A stretch of 52,952 nucleotides of DNA from contig CAZJBJ010000003.1 in assembly GCA_964544295.1 (NCBI GenBank), forward strand, positions 1 through 52,952, read 5' to 3'. The DNA is from an uncultured Bifidobacteriaceae bacterium (GTDB taxonomy: Bacteria; Actinomycetota; Acidimicrobiia; IMCC26256; JAENVU01). Positions 5,330 through 9,854 of the stretch are shown in pieces. A program made the position numbers and the translations under genes. The notes beneath the pieces are model-generated. The model was not told the origin of the DNA. It made no database searches and saw nothing but the letters and a program-made list of their open reading frames with translations. Position 1 is the stretch's first letter. Each line of letters begins with the position of its first letter.

Positions 5330-5791
5330 ATGATCTGGATCGTCGGGTTCATCGTCGTCGGACTGGTCCTCGCGATTGCGGCCGCGTTGGTCTTCCGCGA
5401 GGCCGCGCGCCTGAGTGAGGATCCGCCCGACGCGGTGTTCGACCCGGACGACGCGCAGGCGTGGGTCGTGGAACATCTCCCCGATCTCGTGGCCGCGACC
5501 CTGACCGAAGCCGACGTCGAGCGGATCCTCGGCTTCCAGGCTGAGTTCTTCGAGCAGCGGGGTGTCGCGCACACCACCGAGCGGCCCGACGACTCGGTGC
5601 CGGCGCTCCTCAGCCCCGAGGCCACGATCGACTACATCGTCGAACGCTGTGCTGCGACCGGCGAGGCGTACCTGCCCGAACAGGTCGAGGGTGTCGTGGC
5701 CTGCCAGCTCGACTACCTGGTGTTCATCGGCGCCATCGGGCGCCCGGTCGAGGATCCGCTGGACGATTTCGGTCCCGGCTCGTCGCCCTGA
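5330..5791 (+). CDS. Hypothetical protein with N-terminal membrane anchor
   Basis: Hydrophobic first ~22 aa, then an acidic helical domain; GAGGA SD; GC3-rich codons. Confidence 0.75.
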   Translation: MIWIVGFIVVGLVLAIAAALVFREAARLSEDPPDAVFDPDDAQAWVVEHLPDLVAATLTEADVERILGFQAEFFEQRGVAHTTERPDDSVPALLSPEATIDYIVERCAATGEAYLPEQVEGVVACQLDYLVFIGAIGRPVEDPLDDFGPGSSP

Positions 5792-5835
5792 ACGGTCCCG
5801 ACGCCCGGAAAACGCTCGAACCCACCCGACCGACG

Positions 5836-5854
5836 TGGTACGAATCTCGTACCA
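5836..5854. promoter_or_regulatory. Perfect inverted repeat TGGTACGA-atc-TCGTACCA (candidate operator or 5' hairpin)
   Basis: 8-bp perfect arms with a 3-nt spacer, immediately 5' of the SD of the 13-aa ORF. Confidence 0.45.
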
Positions 5855-5876
5855 GAGAAAGGGGGTGGTCCAACAC

Positions 5877-5918
5877 ATGCATGATCAACATGGGACCCTG
5901 GAGGTGCTCGGCCGCTAG
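5877..5918 (+). CDS. Small ORF, 13 aa MHDQHGTLEVLGR
   Basis: Very strong SD AAAGGGGGTGG (5858-5868) 8 nt before ATG; the stop codon sits in a 7-bp hairpin CTAGGAA-cct-TTCCTAG (5915-5931). Confidence 0.5.
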   Translation: MHDQHGTLEVLGR

Positions 5919-6044
5919 GAACCTTTCCTAGAAGTCGCTCACTCATTGGACTTCGTGCGGAATTCCACCGCAGCACCGCCGCCGTCCGATCGGGAGTTGG
6001 TCCCACCCGAGCAGTCCGGACGTCGGAACCAAGCACACACGCGA

Positions 6045-6082
6045 AGAGCCGGTGGGAAGGTCGTGACCTTTCCACCGGCTCT
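6045..6082. terminator. Long GC-rich hairpin, likely bidirectional intrinsic terminator
   Basis: AGAGCCGGTGGGAAGG-tcgtga-CCTTTCCACCGGCTCT (16-bp stem, one G-U pair) between convergent transcription units; no U-tract, as is common in actinobacteria. Confidence 0.75.
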
Positions 6083-6111
6083 CTCGCGCTCGACCCCGAC
6101 GACGGGTACGG

Positions 6112-7821
6112 CTACGGCTTCGGGCAGAACTTCTGCTCGGCGGCGATGGGGTTCTTGGGGATCTTCAGCAGCGTGTACTCGGGCGCGTGCCAGATGTTCG
6201 AGAGGAACCGGCCCGGGGTGAGCGGCTCGGTCACGGCGTCGAGCAGTCCCTTGATCGGCTGACACCGCAGCACCCGACGCGCGGCCTTGGTACGGGCGTC
6301 GGTGCCACCCACGCCGAACCGCGCGTCGTACCACTGGTCGTCGACCTGCTTGCGGTGACCTGCGGGCCGGTCGGGGATCGGGTCGGTGCGTGCGGCCAAC
6401 GGCTCGGCGAGCCCGCCGATGTCGACGATGTAGACGTCGTGACCCATGACGCGGGCGGGCACACCGATCGAGCCCAGGACGACCACCAGTCGGTTGGGGT
6501 CCTTGCCGGCCCGCGGCTGCTTGTCGAGGACCCGCATGAATCCGCGCCAGCCGTTGGCGTAGTTCCGGCGGATCTCCTGGGGTGCGATGGTGATGCCCGC
6601 ATCCGGGGTGTGGAACATCTCCTTGTGCAACACCAGCCGCCAGTCGGCGATGTCGGTGAGCCCGAACGTCTGCTTCGGGGCGGGGTACCGCACGCCGGCG
6701 ATCACGACGACGACCCAGACCACGGCGACCGCCACCGGGACGAGGCGGCGGACGACGTGCGCGCGCCAGCGCCGCGGATCGATGCCGACCGAAGCGGGCA
6801 GCGCGACCGCGAACACCGCGGGAAGCAACAGGCGACCGTGCATGTAGTCGCCGCCGGTGGCGATCATGTAGCCGGCACCGGCCGCAGCCGCGATCAGGAA
6901 CGTGGCGCTCACGACCAGTTGCCGCCGGTCGCGCACCTCGATGCCGCGCACGAGGACCACCACGACGATGACGGCGAGCGGGATCCAGAGCGCGTAGGTG
7001 CCGACCAGGTCGGTGAAGTAGTTCCATCCCTGGCTCACGTGCAGCCCGCTCGAGTCCTTGGCCAGTGCGGTGCTCGGCACCAGGCTGGCGAAGTAGCCCA
7101 TGCGGAAGACCTGGTACGCGATCGGGAGCGCGAACGCGATCGCGAGGTCGCGGATGATTCGGCGCGGGCTCGCCAGCAGGAACCACGCGACGAGGAACAC
7201 GATCACCATCAGACCGAGTTCGGGCCGTACCAGCGGACCCAGACCGAGCGCGACCAACGACCACCGCCGGGCGCGGGGCGTGGGCTCGGGTGCGTCCGCC
7301 ACGCGGGTGAGCGCGAGCCAGCAACACGCGATCCAGAGCCAGACGAGGCTCATCTCGAGCCCCGAGGTGGCGAAGTCCCACATCACCGGGATGGCGGCCA
7401 CGATGATCAGGCCGATCGGAATCACGAGTTCGCCGGGCCGGTGACGGCGGCGAGTGGCGAGGGCCGCGATCGTGAACGCGCCGATCGCGGCGGCCAGTCC
7501 GAACAGCACCGAGATCCACTCCATGCCCATGGCCCACCCGAACAGGGTCCGACCCACGACGAGGATCGCGAGCCAGAGAGTGCTCGTGTAGGTCTCGATC
7601 CGCTCGCCGGCGTTGAACACGGGCCCGTGACCTGCCATCACCTGGTCGACGATGCGGAAGTTGATGAACGCGTCCTCGTCGGTCCAGCGGTGGATCCACG
7701 CGCCGATGCCGATCATGACGGCGGGAAGCGCGAGCAGCACGATCGAGGCCGCGCGCGTCCACGCGGGTCGTGGTGTCGCGGCCACGGCGTCCACCGTCTC
7801 GTCGAGTTCGGGGTCGGTCAT
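6112..7821 (-). CDS. GT-C fold glycosyltransferase, AftB (arabinofuranosyltransferase)-like
   Basis: RWTDEDAFINFRIVDQVMAGHGPVFNAGERIETYTSTLW, DFATSGLE, LGPLVRPEL, FRMGYFASLVPSTALAK, GGDYMHGRLLLP and GLAEPLAAR...RPAGHRK match AftB-family motifs; ATG 7821 overlaps the upstream stop (ATGA). Confidence 0.8.
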   Translation of the reverse strand: MTDPELDETVDAVAATPRPAWTRAASIVLLALPAVMIGIGAWIHRWTDEDAFINFRIVDQVMAGHGPVFNAGERIETYTSTLWLAILVVGRTLFGWAMGMEWISVLFGLAAAIGAFTIAALATRRRHRPGELVIPIGLIIVAAIPVMWDFATSGLEMSLVWLWIACCWLALTRVADAPEPTPRARRWSLVALGLGPLVRPELGLMVIVFLVAWFLLASPRRIIRDLAIAFALPIAYQVFRMGYFASLVPSTALAKDSSGLHVSQGWNYFTDLVGTYALWIPLAVIVVVVLVRGIEVRDRRQLVVSATFLIAAAAGAGYMIATGGDYMHGRLLLPAVFAVALPASVGIDPRRWRAHVVRRLVPVAVAVVWVVVVIAGVRYPAPKQTFGLTDIADWRLVLHKEMFHTPDAGITIAPQEIRRNYANGWRGFMRVLDKQPRAGKDPNRLVVVLGSIGVPARVMGHDVYIVDIGGLAEPLAARTDPIPDRPAGHRKQVDDQWYDARFGVGGTDARTKAARRVLRCQPIKGLLDAVTEPLTPGRFLSNIWHAPEYTLLKIPKNPIAAEQKFCPKP

Positions 7822-9854
7822 CGTTCGTGTTTGGCGATCTCGGCGAGGATCCACCGGCCGTAGCGAGCGGCCGATGCCGGCGTGAAGTGACGGCCGTCGG
7901 GGCGGATCCGTTCGCCGTTGACGGTTTCGGGGCAGGGTGCACCGGTGGGACACACCTGGGCCGCCAGGTCGATCAGGGTGACCTGGTTCGGATGGCGTTT
8001 CGCGAACCGCCGTTCGATCGAGGCGAGACGCGCGTAGCTGGCGTCGTCGACCGCGTTGGAGGTGTTGTCGGTGCCCTGGGCGTCGTTGGGCGCCGGCGCC
8101 GCGATGGTCACGAGCATCACGTGGGCGCCACCGCGAGTGAGCTGCTTCAGCGCCTCGTCCATGCGGGCGAGCATTGCCCGATCGCCCGCCTTCGTGCCGT
8201 TGACGAGGGTCTTCCCGTCGACGACGAGATCGGACTTCTCCCAACTGCTCGCCCAGACGACGACGTTCGGTCGGGCGCGGGCCAGGCCGTCGCGGAGTGC
8301 GGTGTCGACGAGTTGCGGGCAGCGTTCGGAGTGCGGCGTGATCTGTTCACCCCGGGTCGTCGTGATCTCGCCGGAGGCGACGCCGCACCCGAAGACCGAC
8401 GCCTGGTCGAGTGGTATCCGGTTCCGCCGCCCGACTTCGCGCATGCCCGTCCAGAGACTGCACGCGACGGAGTCGCCGACGATGAGGACGCGCATGTTCT
8501 TCGCGTCGCCGGTGCGGCGGATCGGCCGCTGGGTCGCGACCTCGGTCTTCGCCTCCCGGGTCTCCTCCGGACGCGGCGTGCCGCAGACGAGCGGGTCGCC
8601 GTAGCCCCACAGGTAGCTCGGTGGCGGGGTGGCCCCGGCGGCGGACGCGACGAGCGCGATGCTGACCATCCCGACCGCGACCGGTGCCAGGATCGCCGTC
8701 GGCCGGGCGCGGGTGGCGAGGCCCTCGCGGATCGGCCGTTCGACCAGGTAGTAGGACGTGATCGCGGCGGCGAACGTGACCGCGAGCCGGATCAGGTTCA
8801 GCTGGTTCGGCCCGACATGGACCCGGGTCGGGATCAACCAGACGACGATCGGCCAGTGCCACAGGTAGAGCCCGTAGGACAGCCGCCCGATCCAGGCCAG
8901 GGGTCCGACTCCGAGCAGCCGACCGAAGGGCCCGCCGGCCATGACCGCGGCGATGACGACGGCGACGACGAGGGCGTAGATCGCCGAGCCGCCGTGGTAG
9001 TAGTTCGAGCTCGTGTCGAGCACCGAGTGCCACGCGAATCCGACCGCCACGAGGGCGAGCGGTCCGGCGATCGCCAGGATCTGCCGGACGCGCCGACCGA
9101 TGGGACGCGCGGCCAGGATCAGTGCGAGCAACGCGCCGATGAGCAAGGTGTGCGCGTGGGCGTCCGTCCCGTAGTACGCCCGCGACGGATCGCCGTCCTG
9201 GTACAGGACGGCCATCGCGATCACGGACGCGATCGCGCCCACCGTGCACACCGCGGCCAGCACCCGAGTCGATCCGCGGGCGACCCGCAGGCAGCCCAGC
9301 ACGATCAGCGGCCAGACCAGGTAGAACTGTTCCTCGATCGCGAGCGACCACATGTGTCGGAGCGGCGACGCGGCCGAGAACAGCGTGAAGTACGACTGCT
9401 GGTCGAGGATGAACCGCCAGTTGGCGACGTAGAACAGGCTGGCGATGCCGTCGTTGCGGATGCTGGTCCGCTCCCACGGCGCGACGTAATGGTGCGTGTA
9501 CCACGCGACGAACAGGAGCACGAGCAGGAGTGCGGGGAGGAGTCGTCGGGCCCGTCGGCCCCAGAATCCGCCGAGCTTGATCGTGCGGATCCGACGGAAC
9601 TCGAACACCAGCAGCGTCGTGATCAGGAAGCCGGAGAGCACGAAGAACGCGTCGACGCCGAGGAACCCGCCCTTCGCCCACCGGTAGTCGAAGTGGTACG
9701 CGATGACCGCCAGCACCGACAGGGCGCGGAGTCCGTCCAGGGCCGGGTGGTACCGCAGCCGGTTCGCGGCGGACTGCGCGGTGCCGGACCCCGAAGAGTC
9801 GGCATCCGGACCGTCGGCGAGGGTCGAGAGCTGCGTGTCGTCGCCGGGATCCAC
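7818..9854 (-). CDS. O-acyltransferase, AT3 membrane domain fused to extracellular SGNH domain (OatA/OafA-like)
   Basis: LDGLRA, GGFLGVDAFFVLSGFLIT, RRARRLLPA, HMWSLAIEEQFY, SYGLYLWHWP; C-terminal GDSVA and DGRH (DxxH) SGNH motifs. Confidence 0.92.
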   Translation of the reverse strand: MDPGDDTQLSTLADGPDADSSGSGTAQSAANRLRYHPALDGLRALSVLAVIAYHFDYRWAKGGFLGVDAFFVLSGFLITTLLVFEFRRIRTIKLGGFWGRRARRLLPALLLVLLFVAWYTHHYVAPWERTSIRNDGIASLFYVANWRFILDQQSYFTLFSAASPLRHMWSLAIEEQFYLVWPLIVLGCLRVARGSTRVLAAVCTVGAIASVIAMAVLYQDGDPSRAYYGTDAHAHTLLIGALLALILAARPIGRRVRQILAIAGPLALVAVGFAWHSVLDTSSNYYHGGSAIYALVVAVVIAAVMAGGPFGRLLGVGPLAWIGRLSYGLYLWHWPIVVWLIPTRVHVGPNQLNLIRLAVTFAAAITSYYLVERPIREGLATRARPTAILAPVAVGMVSIALVASAAGATPPPSYLWGYGDPLVCGTPRPEETREAKTEVATQRPIRRTGDAKNMRVLIVGDSVACSLWTGMREVGRRNRIPLDQASVFGCGVASGEITTTRGEQITPHSERCPQLVDTALRDGLARARPNVVVWASSWEKSDLVVDGKTLVNGTKAGDRAMLARMDEALKQLTRGGAHVMLVTIAAPAPNDAQGTDNTSNAVDDASYARLASIERRFAKRHPNQVTLIDLAAQVCPTGAPCPETVNGERIRPDGRHFTPASAARYGRWILAEIAKHER

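Follow-up and report, generated by a model that had tools for sequence, protein, structure and literature searches.

Ms_IGR-5 (Rfam RF02471, listed as 'Actinobacteria sRNA') is a family of bacterial small RNAs (sRNAs) that was reportedly first found by Hfq pull-down in work of Li et al. from 2013. We describe here an element on the forward strand of a 52,952-nucleotide (nt) stretch of DNA, from contig CAZJBJ010000003.1 of an uncultured actinomycete of the class Acidimicrobiia, that is very probably a divergent member of this family; this whole stretch is called the window below. The element lies within a 320-nt spacer that separates a forward-strand gene (5330-5791) from a convergent reverse-strand gene (6112-8244), and it is a conserved and apparently expressed sRNA gene that contains a mini open reading frame (ORF).

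In Mycobacterium smegmatis the family is represented by IGR-5, or ncMSMEG15794c, an RNA between MSMEG_5794 and MSMEG_5795 that is 'validated but yet uncharacterized' according to the available portion of one account, which cites Li et al. 2013 for IGR-5 and its reported start site only (bioRxiv 10.1101/2021.12.14.472595). The accessible text of further studies reports validation of a family member by RNA-seq in Streptomyces lividans (PMC8079986), treats a member as an sRNA unit in a mapping of transcript starts and ends in S. avermitilis (PMC8780764), re-detects the M. smegmatis RNA as ncMSMEG15794c (PMC10454040), and notes 'significant ribosomal reads' on the family member in M. abscessus and M. 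smegmatis (PMC4974804). The family is uncharacterised in the literature on Ms_IGR-5, RF02471 and IGR-5, the accessible part of which holds no description of a mini-ORF, a complement of 16S ribosomal RNA (rRNA), a pseudoknot or a function, although the ORF may be listed in supplementary tables. Names in the Mtb style (ncRv0811 and similar) have no literature matches. The idea that Streptomyces scr4389 is the same RNA was an unverified guess and has been dropped; the accessible literature merely lists the name.

At the gathering thresholds of Rfam, the window contains no match. In a permissive scan, positions 5851-6032 align to the full RF02471 model (positions 1-184) with 24.8 bits (E ~1e-3), and this single copy is the best match in the window's own genome. 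An even sample of 151 genomes from the same class yields full-length matches at E<=0.01 in 42 of them, mostly one per genome, but only one genome passes the gathering cut-off, from which we conclude that the cut-off is too strict for this class. When 151 genomes are sampled across the phylum, 44 have a match at E<=0.001 and 22 pass, with scores of 165-186 bits in one group (which includes loci L063-L066) and 78-85 bits in another. Both tallies include four unpublished genomes that are excluded from everything that follows. Neither search finds a match in 14 well-known control genomes, at E<=0.01 in the class search and at E<=0.001 in the phylum search.

The recognition also works in the opposite direction. 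A covariance model, R1, whose 22 source sequences all come from the window's own order, matches 81 of 100 sources at E<=0.01 and in each case does so over its full length. R1 recovers the high scorers of RF02471 (43-46 bits for L063-L065 and 31.4 bits for L066; E 6e-9 to 2e-5), and it matches loci from Mycobacterium (L093, 39 bits), Streptomyces purpureus (L095, 24.9 bits) and an acidobacterial metagenome-assembled genome (MAG; L151, 40.8 bits), while none of four chance-pattern controls is matched. Because undisputed members are recognized reciprocally and the controls are not, we file the element as a divergent member of Ms_IGR-5. The sequence-only reading had proposed it as an undescribed element and had allowed that a described Rfam family would remove the novelty; the RF02471 match does so, and the description given in that reading is otherwise largely right.

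A second RF02471-like match in the same genome (G000:C10:1598-1661, 15 bits, E 0.59) is partial, spanning model positions 115-178, and a GC hairpin probably produces it as noise. Two matches each occur in genomes G005 (C195 and C483) and G197 (C126 and C17), as real duplicates or as strain mixtures in MAGs; elsewhere the element is single-copy.

The window copy resembles Ms_IGR-5 in several respects. It aligns to the model over the full length, occurs once per genome and appears to be a stand-alone gene. The order of its parts is also common to the family: a +1 A, helix P1, a long Shine-Dalgarno (SD) sequence, the mini-ORF, a second GGAGGUG, a GAAUYC internal loop and a terminal hairpin with a GUCC loop. 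Finally, the secondary structure is shared, in that helices P1, P3 and P4 covary over 81 sequences that include undisputed members as well as relatives from the window's own order, in an alignment fitted to the model. The differences are that the window copy scores below the cut-off and comes from another class of the phylum, that it has an ATG start and 13 codons whereas Mycobacterium-type members have TTG and 12 codons, and that it adds an expansion segment after the stop codon together with a separate GC terminator hairpin.

The conservation of the element is far greater than chance would produce. By BLASTN, the spacer is matched in 33 of 41 genomes, a count that includes the window's own, and the core at 5834-5919 retains 86-98% identity across 29 related loci or genomes. 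The upstream alignment of relatives reveals an extended -10 promoter element, TGnTACGAA (TGgTACGAA at 5836-5844 in the window). Among 203 distinct relatives, a TANNNT hexamer starts at -14 to -11 in 119, compared with 2 in a control window, and 171 have an A 10 nt upstream of GGAGG. In the window this nucleotide is A5851, at which position 1 of both the Rfam model and R1 aligns, and we predict that transcription starts here from the extended -10 promoter. The start of M. smegmatis IGR-5, an NAD-capped RNA, was likewise mapped to an A by NAD captureSeq, according to the available portion of the report (bioRxiv 10.1101/2021.12.14.472595). A simple promoter and terminator scan returns 0 sites on both strands; the -10 box departs from the consensus and the terminator has no U-tract. 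A perfect 8-bp palindrome noticed earlier is indeed present here, with arms at 5836-5843 and 5847-5854 and a 3-nt loop, but it does not form an RNA hairpin: its left arm is the extended -10 box, which precedes the transcript, and the rest provides the first transcript bases. Its complementarity is lost outside the genus.

Sequences assembled from RNA libraries coincide with the element. Contigs from four metatranscriptome runs with four study codes cover 5863-6034, 5898-6044, 5864-6014 and 5898-6027, two of them identical to the window, and although they demonstrate presence in RNA libraries, they reveal neither strand nor true ends nor expression level. Over the 701-nt stretch 5600-6300, no contig covers 5600-5862 or extends beyond 6044, and none lies on the flanking genes. 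Assembly breaks at a hairpin may account for the contig ends near 6034-6044.

This hairpin is the ~16-bp terminator that had been recognized from the sequence, a GC-rich structure without a U-tract at 6040-6088 that is followed by the motif UCUCGCGC. Its counterpart is conserved in the window's own order, where a strong hairpin (-31.5 to -49.5 kcal/mol in 56-nt windows) begins +160 to +202 from the start in all 28 loci evaluated. Because it follows P4 in 28/28 loci whatever gene lies downstream, with UCGCGYC after it in most, we regard it as part of the RNA unit. Its position 24 nt beyond the stop of the convergent gene means that it could act in both directions. The best explanation of these ends is a transcript of ~180 nt that reaches the end of P4 (~6028), or one of ~240 nt that reaches the terminator hairpin. 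A UCUCGCG(Y)C motif (6082-6095 in the window) follows the GC hairpin in most own-order and many class-level loci, though the hairpin sequences themselves differ; it may replace the absent U-tract or mark the 3′ end.

The same observations bear on the reading in which the RNA is a cis element of its neighbours, as the 3′ untranslated region or terminator either of the upstream operon, which encodes an acyl-CoA dehydrogenase and a 153-amino-acid (aa) protein, or of the convergent membrane-protein gene. In the order and part of the class, ~32-36 loci share the upstream gene pair in synteny, and the position of the hairpin relative to the convergent gene also fits. Yet the RNA has its own conserved -10 box and +1 A, and its contigs begin at 5863/5864 with the upstream gene uncovered. 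No neighbouring gene shared phylum-wide is found among the relatives' loci, where downstream genes differ, and the contexts are quite different in Mycobacterium-type, Streptomyces-type, acidobacterial and Leptospira genomes. We therefore consider a cis function hardly credible. No same-strand gene follows the element, the next gene (6112-8244) being convergent, so that it is also not an ordinary attenuator leader, as the sequence-only reading had recognized. A stand-alone structured sRNA with a conserved mini-ORF, the core of that reading, is supported here.

Two alignments reveal a common fold, one (A1) prepared with MAFFT from the 5′ domain of 88 sequences and the other (A4) prepared by aligning 81 sequences to a covariance model. 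P1 joins nt 2-5 of the RNA (CCAG, 5852-5855) to the four nt before AGGUG (CUGG, 5898-5901), which are codon 8 and the first base of codon 9 of the mini-ORF, and it covaries strongly in A1. Column pair 3-54 is CG in 50 sequences, AU in 12, GC in 9, GU in 3, UG in 3 and UA in 2, with none unpaired, and column pair 4-53 is AU in 45, CG in 18 and GC in 12. The covariation score of P1 is 0.313, compared with 0.096 in shuffles (0 of 500 reach the observed value) and at most 0.084 when the partners are slid. In A4, the same helix (helix 1) is 97.8% paired.

RNAalifold applied to the sequences of the order yields the other two helices. P3 pairs GGUGCUCGGCCGCU (5903-5916, codons 9-13) with GCGG-AAUUCCA-CCGCAGCACC (5957-5977) around the conserved GAAUYC internal loop, and P4 is a terminal hairpin (5979-6026) with an inner stem formed by 5990-5994 and 6006-6010 and an 11-nt loop, AGUUGGUCCCA. 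Within the order, columns 61-133 of P3 are GC in 11 sequences, GU in 4, UA in 3 and AU in 3. Across the family, pairing reaches 92.4% in helix 4 and 88.2% in helix 5 of A4, which together make up P3, and 5 and 6 of their pairs, respectively, have changed on both sides. P4 corresponds to helices 6-8 of A4, and helix 8 is 97.2% paired with 5 of 5 pairs changed on both sides. For A4 overall, 89.8% of cells are paired versus 68.9% in shuffles, 30 of 40 pairs are changed on both sides, and the covariation score is 0.438 versus 0.137 in shuffles (none of 500 as high) and no more than 0.064 with partners slid; these pair counts are inflated by the fitting of A4 to the structure, and because the sequences are related, shuffle controls overstate significance in both alignments.

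The loop of P4 takes part in a further interaction. A complementarity between TGGGACC (5891-5897) and GGTCCCA (5999-6005), already pointed out from the sequence, turns out to be a conserved pseudoknot with compensatory changes. Its 5′ strand is GGGACC (5892-5897), which makes up codons 6-7 of the ORF, and its 3′ strand in the P4 loop is GGUCCC(A) (5999-6004, or to 6005 when U5891 extends the pairing to 7 bp). In 63 of 81 rows, the inner hairpin of P4 contains a sequence exactly complementary to the ORF core, and 34 of 54 distinct combinations form the flanking pair, compared with 17.0 +/- 3.0 in shuffles (0 of 2000 reach this number). Compensatory variants occur in several lineages (CGACC:GGUCG, AGACC:GGUCU, GGACG:CGUCC and GGAU:AUCC). 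Scores beyond those of shuffles thus support P1, P3, P4 and the pseudoknot.

The remaining long-range pairings centred on the initiation region fare less well, although each is present at the positions that the sequence-only reading had given. TGGGACC can also pair with GGTCC at 5867-5871, and our first model included this helix, P2 (GGUCC 5867-5871 with GGACC 5893-5897). We now regard P2 as an alternative helix at best, because compensation for variants of the ORF motif occurs in the P4 loop and not beside the SD. CCACCC (6003-6008), proposed as an anti-SD to GGGTGG (5863-5868), is unconserved; its counterparts elsewhere are CCCCCC, CCCTCC or CCCACT, which form the 3′ strand of a P4 stem. TTGGAC (5946-5951) with GTCCAA (5868-5873) shows no covariation (self extension 0.90 versus cross extension 0.80 +/- 0.08). 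Of 201 relatives, 78 have a GGACC motif in the middle of the RNA and 37 have GGACCAC, and covariation with the SD flank is absent. TTGGAC belongs to a variable expansion segment (5915-5955) past the stop codon, whose length and sequence vary widely among relatives. The hairpin over the stop codon (CTAGGAA/TTCCTAG, 5915-5931) is part of the same segment; it is present as described but conserved only in the closest relatives (L003-L007, L009 and L010).

The region left unpaired between P1 and the start codon in the covariation model is a strikingly long SD. The very strong SD that had been read from the sequence, AAAGGGGGTGG within 5858-5868, is part of SD1 (AGAAAGGGGGTGGTCC, 5856-5871), which is complementary to a 16-nt tail of 16S rRNA through 14 Watson-Crick and 2 G.U pairs. 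In genomes of the same genus, the 16S genes end exactly in this tail, the window's own 16S gene being unassembled. All 16 SD1 positions are pairable in 177 of 203 relatives and 15 of the 16 in 25 more. The start codon lies 5 nt after SD1, and the pseudoknot begins 15 nt downstream of the A of AUG, which is about the edge of the footprint of an initiating ribosome as judged from established footprint sizes. A second SD-like sequence, SD2 (GGAGGUG, 5900-5906), lies 9 nt before the stop codon and is present in 88 of 88 loci; its GAGGT is invariant in A1, and its GGUG forms the first part of P3.

A structure of this kind invites the view that the RNA is a ribosome decoy or parking site, in which the SD, the start codon and the pseudoknot at +15 would hold a seldom-elongating 30S or 70S complex and thereby titrate or store ribosomes, or shield the 16S tail. 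The complement spans the whole 16S tail, structure begins where the footprint of the initiating ribosome would end, and 29 of 191 relatives tolerate a non-canonical or absent start codon. The RNA is also the sole contig-covered part of 5600-6300 in the four metatranscriptome runs, which is compatible with high abundance but is not proof of it. However, a sponge would need to rival ribosome numbers, the position of the stop codon is fixed with TAG, TGA and TAA interchanging and no sense codon in true members, and the frame is stop-free in 185 of 191 relatives. Neither a fixed stop nor an open frame would be needed if ribosomes never elongated, and we consider the decoy unlikely.

The mini-ORF itself runs for 13 codons from ATG at 5877 to TAG at 5918 and encodes the peptide MHDQHGTLEVLGR, as the sequence-only reading had it, and comparison now adds that its start, frame and stop are kept over relatives. 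An in-frame stop occurs exactly 5 codons past the GAG of GAGGUG in 87 of 88 loci (TAG 64, TGA 17 and TAA 6), and the 88th (L009), which the pattern does not score, fits as well. The start position in these loci holds ATG in 44, TTG in 24, GTG in 5, CTG in 11, ATC in 1 and ATA in 1, with none in L075 and L009 not scored; the ORF is 12-15 codons long. Among the matches listed in a pattern scan that allows TRR, the stop position is TAG in 94, TAA in 13, TGA in 10 and TGG in 3, and the three TGG matches lack the 5′ part of the family. For 191 distinct 5′ domains, a canonical start is found 4-14 nt after GGAGG in frame in 162 versus 25 and 7 in the other frames, and none has only out-of-frame starts. 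Frame 0 is open in the 185 domains mentioned above versus 80 and 17 for the other two frames, and L027 and L031 carry an in-frame TTT insertion. On comparative grounds, this conservation of start, frame and stop is a coding signature.

CTG, which is no canonical codon, stands at the start position 8-9 nt after GGAGG in the 11 loci counted above (L033, L037, L076, L077, L079-L081, L084-L086 and L088). L075 lacks a start there altogether. Either CUG initiates behind a very strong SD, or translation is dispensable in such loci.

The amino acids follow the RNA. A threonine is dictated by the pseudoknot strand, the next residue by the P1 strand (which covaries with the 5′ end), and the Glu-Val pair by GGAGGUG. 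Each of the last three codons changes in concert with its P3 partner; the codon for L, R or H within the order, for example, belongs to the GC11, GU4, UA3, AU3 column pair given for P3. The N-terminal half differs almost completely between classes, and changes in codons 2-5 within the order are mostly non-synonymous. Because start, frame and stop are kept while codons covary as strands of RNA helices, translation rather than the peptide looks to be under selection. In-frame AGU (Ser) codons recur in the variable N-terminal half of distant relatives, as GAY-AGU or GGY-AGU-AGU (e.g. L039, L051, L089, L094, L128, L141, L151, L162 and L164). AGU is rare in high-GC lineages, and its recurrence could be an RNA motif or a deliberate use of rare codons.

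These data also weigh on the proposal of a true micropeptide gene, in which the 13-residue product is the effector and the RNA structure tunes its synthesis. Conserved start, frame and stop, the 3-nt insertions that preserve the frame in L027 and L031, a recurrent C-terminal T-x-E-V-x-x-R/S/G/C and the Ser(AGU)-rich N-terminal halves of distant lineages would all suit such a gene. Nevertheless, the conserved residues are explained by the constraints of the pseudoknot, P1, GGAGGUG and P3, whereas the residues free of these constraints diverge between classes and change non-synonymously within the order, and so an effector peptide seems a long shot. The earlier suggestion of a dual-function sRNA or ribosome-binding RNA comes close to the reading we favour. 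Like SgrS/SgrT, RNAIII/hld, SR1/SR1P and rnTrpL/peTrpL, the element places a short ORF within a structured, independently acting small RNA. Unlike in these systems, whose peptides have conserved sequences and activities of their own, the predicted window peptide follows RNA pairing. In the accessible text of two dual-function RNA reviews from 2025, one has no mention of mycobacteria or actinobacteria (PMC12612679) and the other mentions only Streptomyces scr5239, which is a different sRNA (PMC12310071).

Resemblance to other RNA devices is partial. As in leader-peptide attenuators and SD-anti-SD switches, there is a short ORF whose translation would melt downstream helices, together with SD-like and anti-SD-like segments, but the window RNA has no downstream cis gene, no conserved neighbour and no regulatory codon run, and the anti-SD motif in its middle is confined to the 78 of 201 relatives noted above. 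The likeness to type I toxin mRNAs (hok-like) that had been drawn earlier holds loosely, in that the 5′ end is paired internally and long-range pairing surrounds the initiation region. The window peptide and its homologues are hydrophilic, in contrast to small hydrophobic membrane-active toxins, and the 13 residues are dictated by RNA pairing; P1 moreover joins the 5′ end to the ORF and not to the 3′ end.

An ordinary base-pairing sRNA, in which the SD-like and C-rich segments act on target mRNAs and the ORF is incidental, would make use of the C-rich 3′ strand CCACCGCAGCACCGCCGCC, which we take to be similar to the seed regions of other Gram-positive sRNAs. The reported discovery of the family by Hfq pull-down would fit such a role. 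The strong signature of frame and stop over 191 relatives speaks against an incidental ORF, the C-rich segment is paired within P3 in the covariation model, and no targets are known. We rate this possibility as even slighter than that of an effector peptide.

The explanation that we favour, and hold to be rather more probable than its competitors taken together, is a single-copy Ms_IGR-5-type sRNA that combines ribosome docking with translation-coupled refolding. P1 would clamp the 5′ end and leave the 16-nt SD1 exposed directly after it, so that a 30S subunit could dock on this 'super-SD'. The AUG could then be seated without melting anything, given that the pseudoknot starts 15 nt downstream and initiation therefore needs no unfolding. 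Elongation over the 13 codons would open the pseudoknot (codons 6-7), P1 (codon 8) and P3 (codons 9-13) in turn, with the stop codon at the top of P3, and it would end with GGAGGUG at an initiation-like spacing from the last sense codon. Engagement of the ribosome would thus remodel the RNA and might free the C-rich 3′ strand at 5957-5977, while the peptide would be a by-product. That translation-coupled remodelling is the working principle is a narrower proposition, to which we give slightly less than an even chance. Translation, refolding and a downstream effect are what we infer from the established homology, architecture and conservation of this RNA.

Several facts weigh against this reading. 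The RF02471 score of 24.8 bits lies below the gathering cut-off of 45, and membership rests on the reciprocal model and the shared architecture. The RNA body (5850-6036) is not unusually stable (z = -0.71), and the single-sequence minimum-free-energy fold does not recover the covariation model, whose statistics are subject to the inflation described above. P2 would partly occlude the SD and can form in most relatives (95.7% paired in A1), which suggests that the SD may not always be free. Because 29 of 191 relatives lack a canonical in-frame start, translation may be weak or dispensable in some lineages. For this organism, translation of the mini-ORF has a comparative basis, footprints being reported for homologues, and the RNA-library contigs carry the limits already stated. 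The whole spacer is far more stable than the body (z ~ -5.9, with -5.4 for the opposite strand), and since the body without the terminator hairpin has the value just given and the opposite strand is nearly as stable as the spacer, this figure probably owes much to that hairpin.

Relatives occur across Actinomycetota and beyond. A pattern scan of named genomes finds at least 120 loci, and among the matches listed most are from several classes of Actinomycetota (Mycobacterium, Streptomyces, Micromonospora, Nocardioides, Acidimicrobiia, Thermoleophilia-type, Rubrobacteraceae and Nitriliruptoraceae), with others from Acidobacteriota, Leptospira, Syntrophobacter, Thermodesulfobacteriota, Ignavibacteria, Fibrobacteraceae and Phycisphaeraceae. 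With RF02471 itself, two acidobacterial loci reach 51.6 and 47.7 bits and so exceed the cut-off, and a Blastocatellia locus (41), a Thermodesulfobacteriota locus (34.7) and a Syntrophobacter locus (32.9) follow. In a sample of the acidobacterial phylum, the strict pattern occurs in 14 of 151 genomes, 12 of them with a stop codon and the family layout, and the reversed control pattern in 4 genomes. Leptospira carries one copy in 40 of 41 genomes at 85-100% identity, laid out as an SD, a UUG-start ORF, GAGGUG, a P3-like pairing and a terminal hairpin with a GGUGGUC loop. RF02471 finds no match in the Leptospira genome searched and the R1 score is not convincing, so that the case for this genus is made by architecture and genus-wide conservation. 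The family annotated as 'Actinobacteria sRNA' therefore has relatives in other phyla, namely in Acidobacteriota, Leptospira and Syntrophobacter.

The most distant candidates (Leptospira, Ignavibacteria, Terriglobales, Bryobacter, Fibrobacter and Phycisphaerae) are weak or unscored with R1, at 12.9 to 1.4 bits compared with at most 9.8 bits for chance controls. For those from Ignavibacteria, Fibrobacter, Deferrimicrobiaceae and Phycisphaerae, the 5′ pattern is the sole evidence. The non-actinobacterial loci comprise L128, L141, L146, L151, L164, L171, L182, L185 and L186 (Acidobacteriota), L162 and L219-L238 (Leptospira), L170 and L094 (Desulfobacterota-type), and also L096, L143, L193 and L212.

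This distribution allows a bolder speculation, which we put forward as improbable: an ancient multi-phylum 'test mRNA' (in Actinomycetota, Acidobacteriota, Leptospira, Syntrophobacter-type Desulfobacterota and possibly more) might use its exposed complement of the 16S tail and its minimal ORF to sense the availability or competence of ribosomes or free 16S 3′ ends, with the translation-driven unfolding of its pseudoknotted core giving rise to a regulatory output. If true, this would be a dedicated RNA sensor of translational capacity. For the window, the outcome is mostly a correction, in that a supposedly undescribed element is very probably a divergent copy of a catalogued sRNA missed by the Rfam threshold in this class. 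The family is noteworthy because it is single-copy and conserved phylum-wide and beyond, and because it unites a complement of the whole 16S tail with mini-ORF codons that double as strands of a pseudoknotted fold. The mapped positions of start, stop, SD and pseudoknot ease direct tests in M. smegmatis and Streptomyces.

The genes on either side of the element, for the 153-aa protein (5330-5791, forward strand) and for a 710-aa multi-pass membrane protein (6112-8244, reverse strand), have no Pfam match, and the latter is followed by a gene for an acyltransferase-3 and SGNH protein (7818-9854, reverse strand). In two distant loci, L146 (Bryobacter, 1-158) and L138 (488-577), the RNA adjoins another stable RNA gene, in one case for RNase P RNA and in the other for a tRNA.

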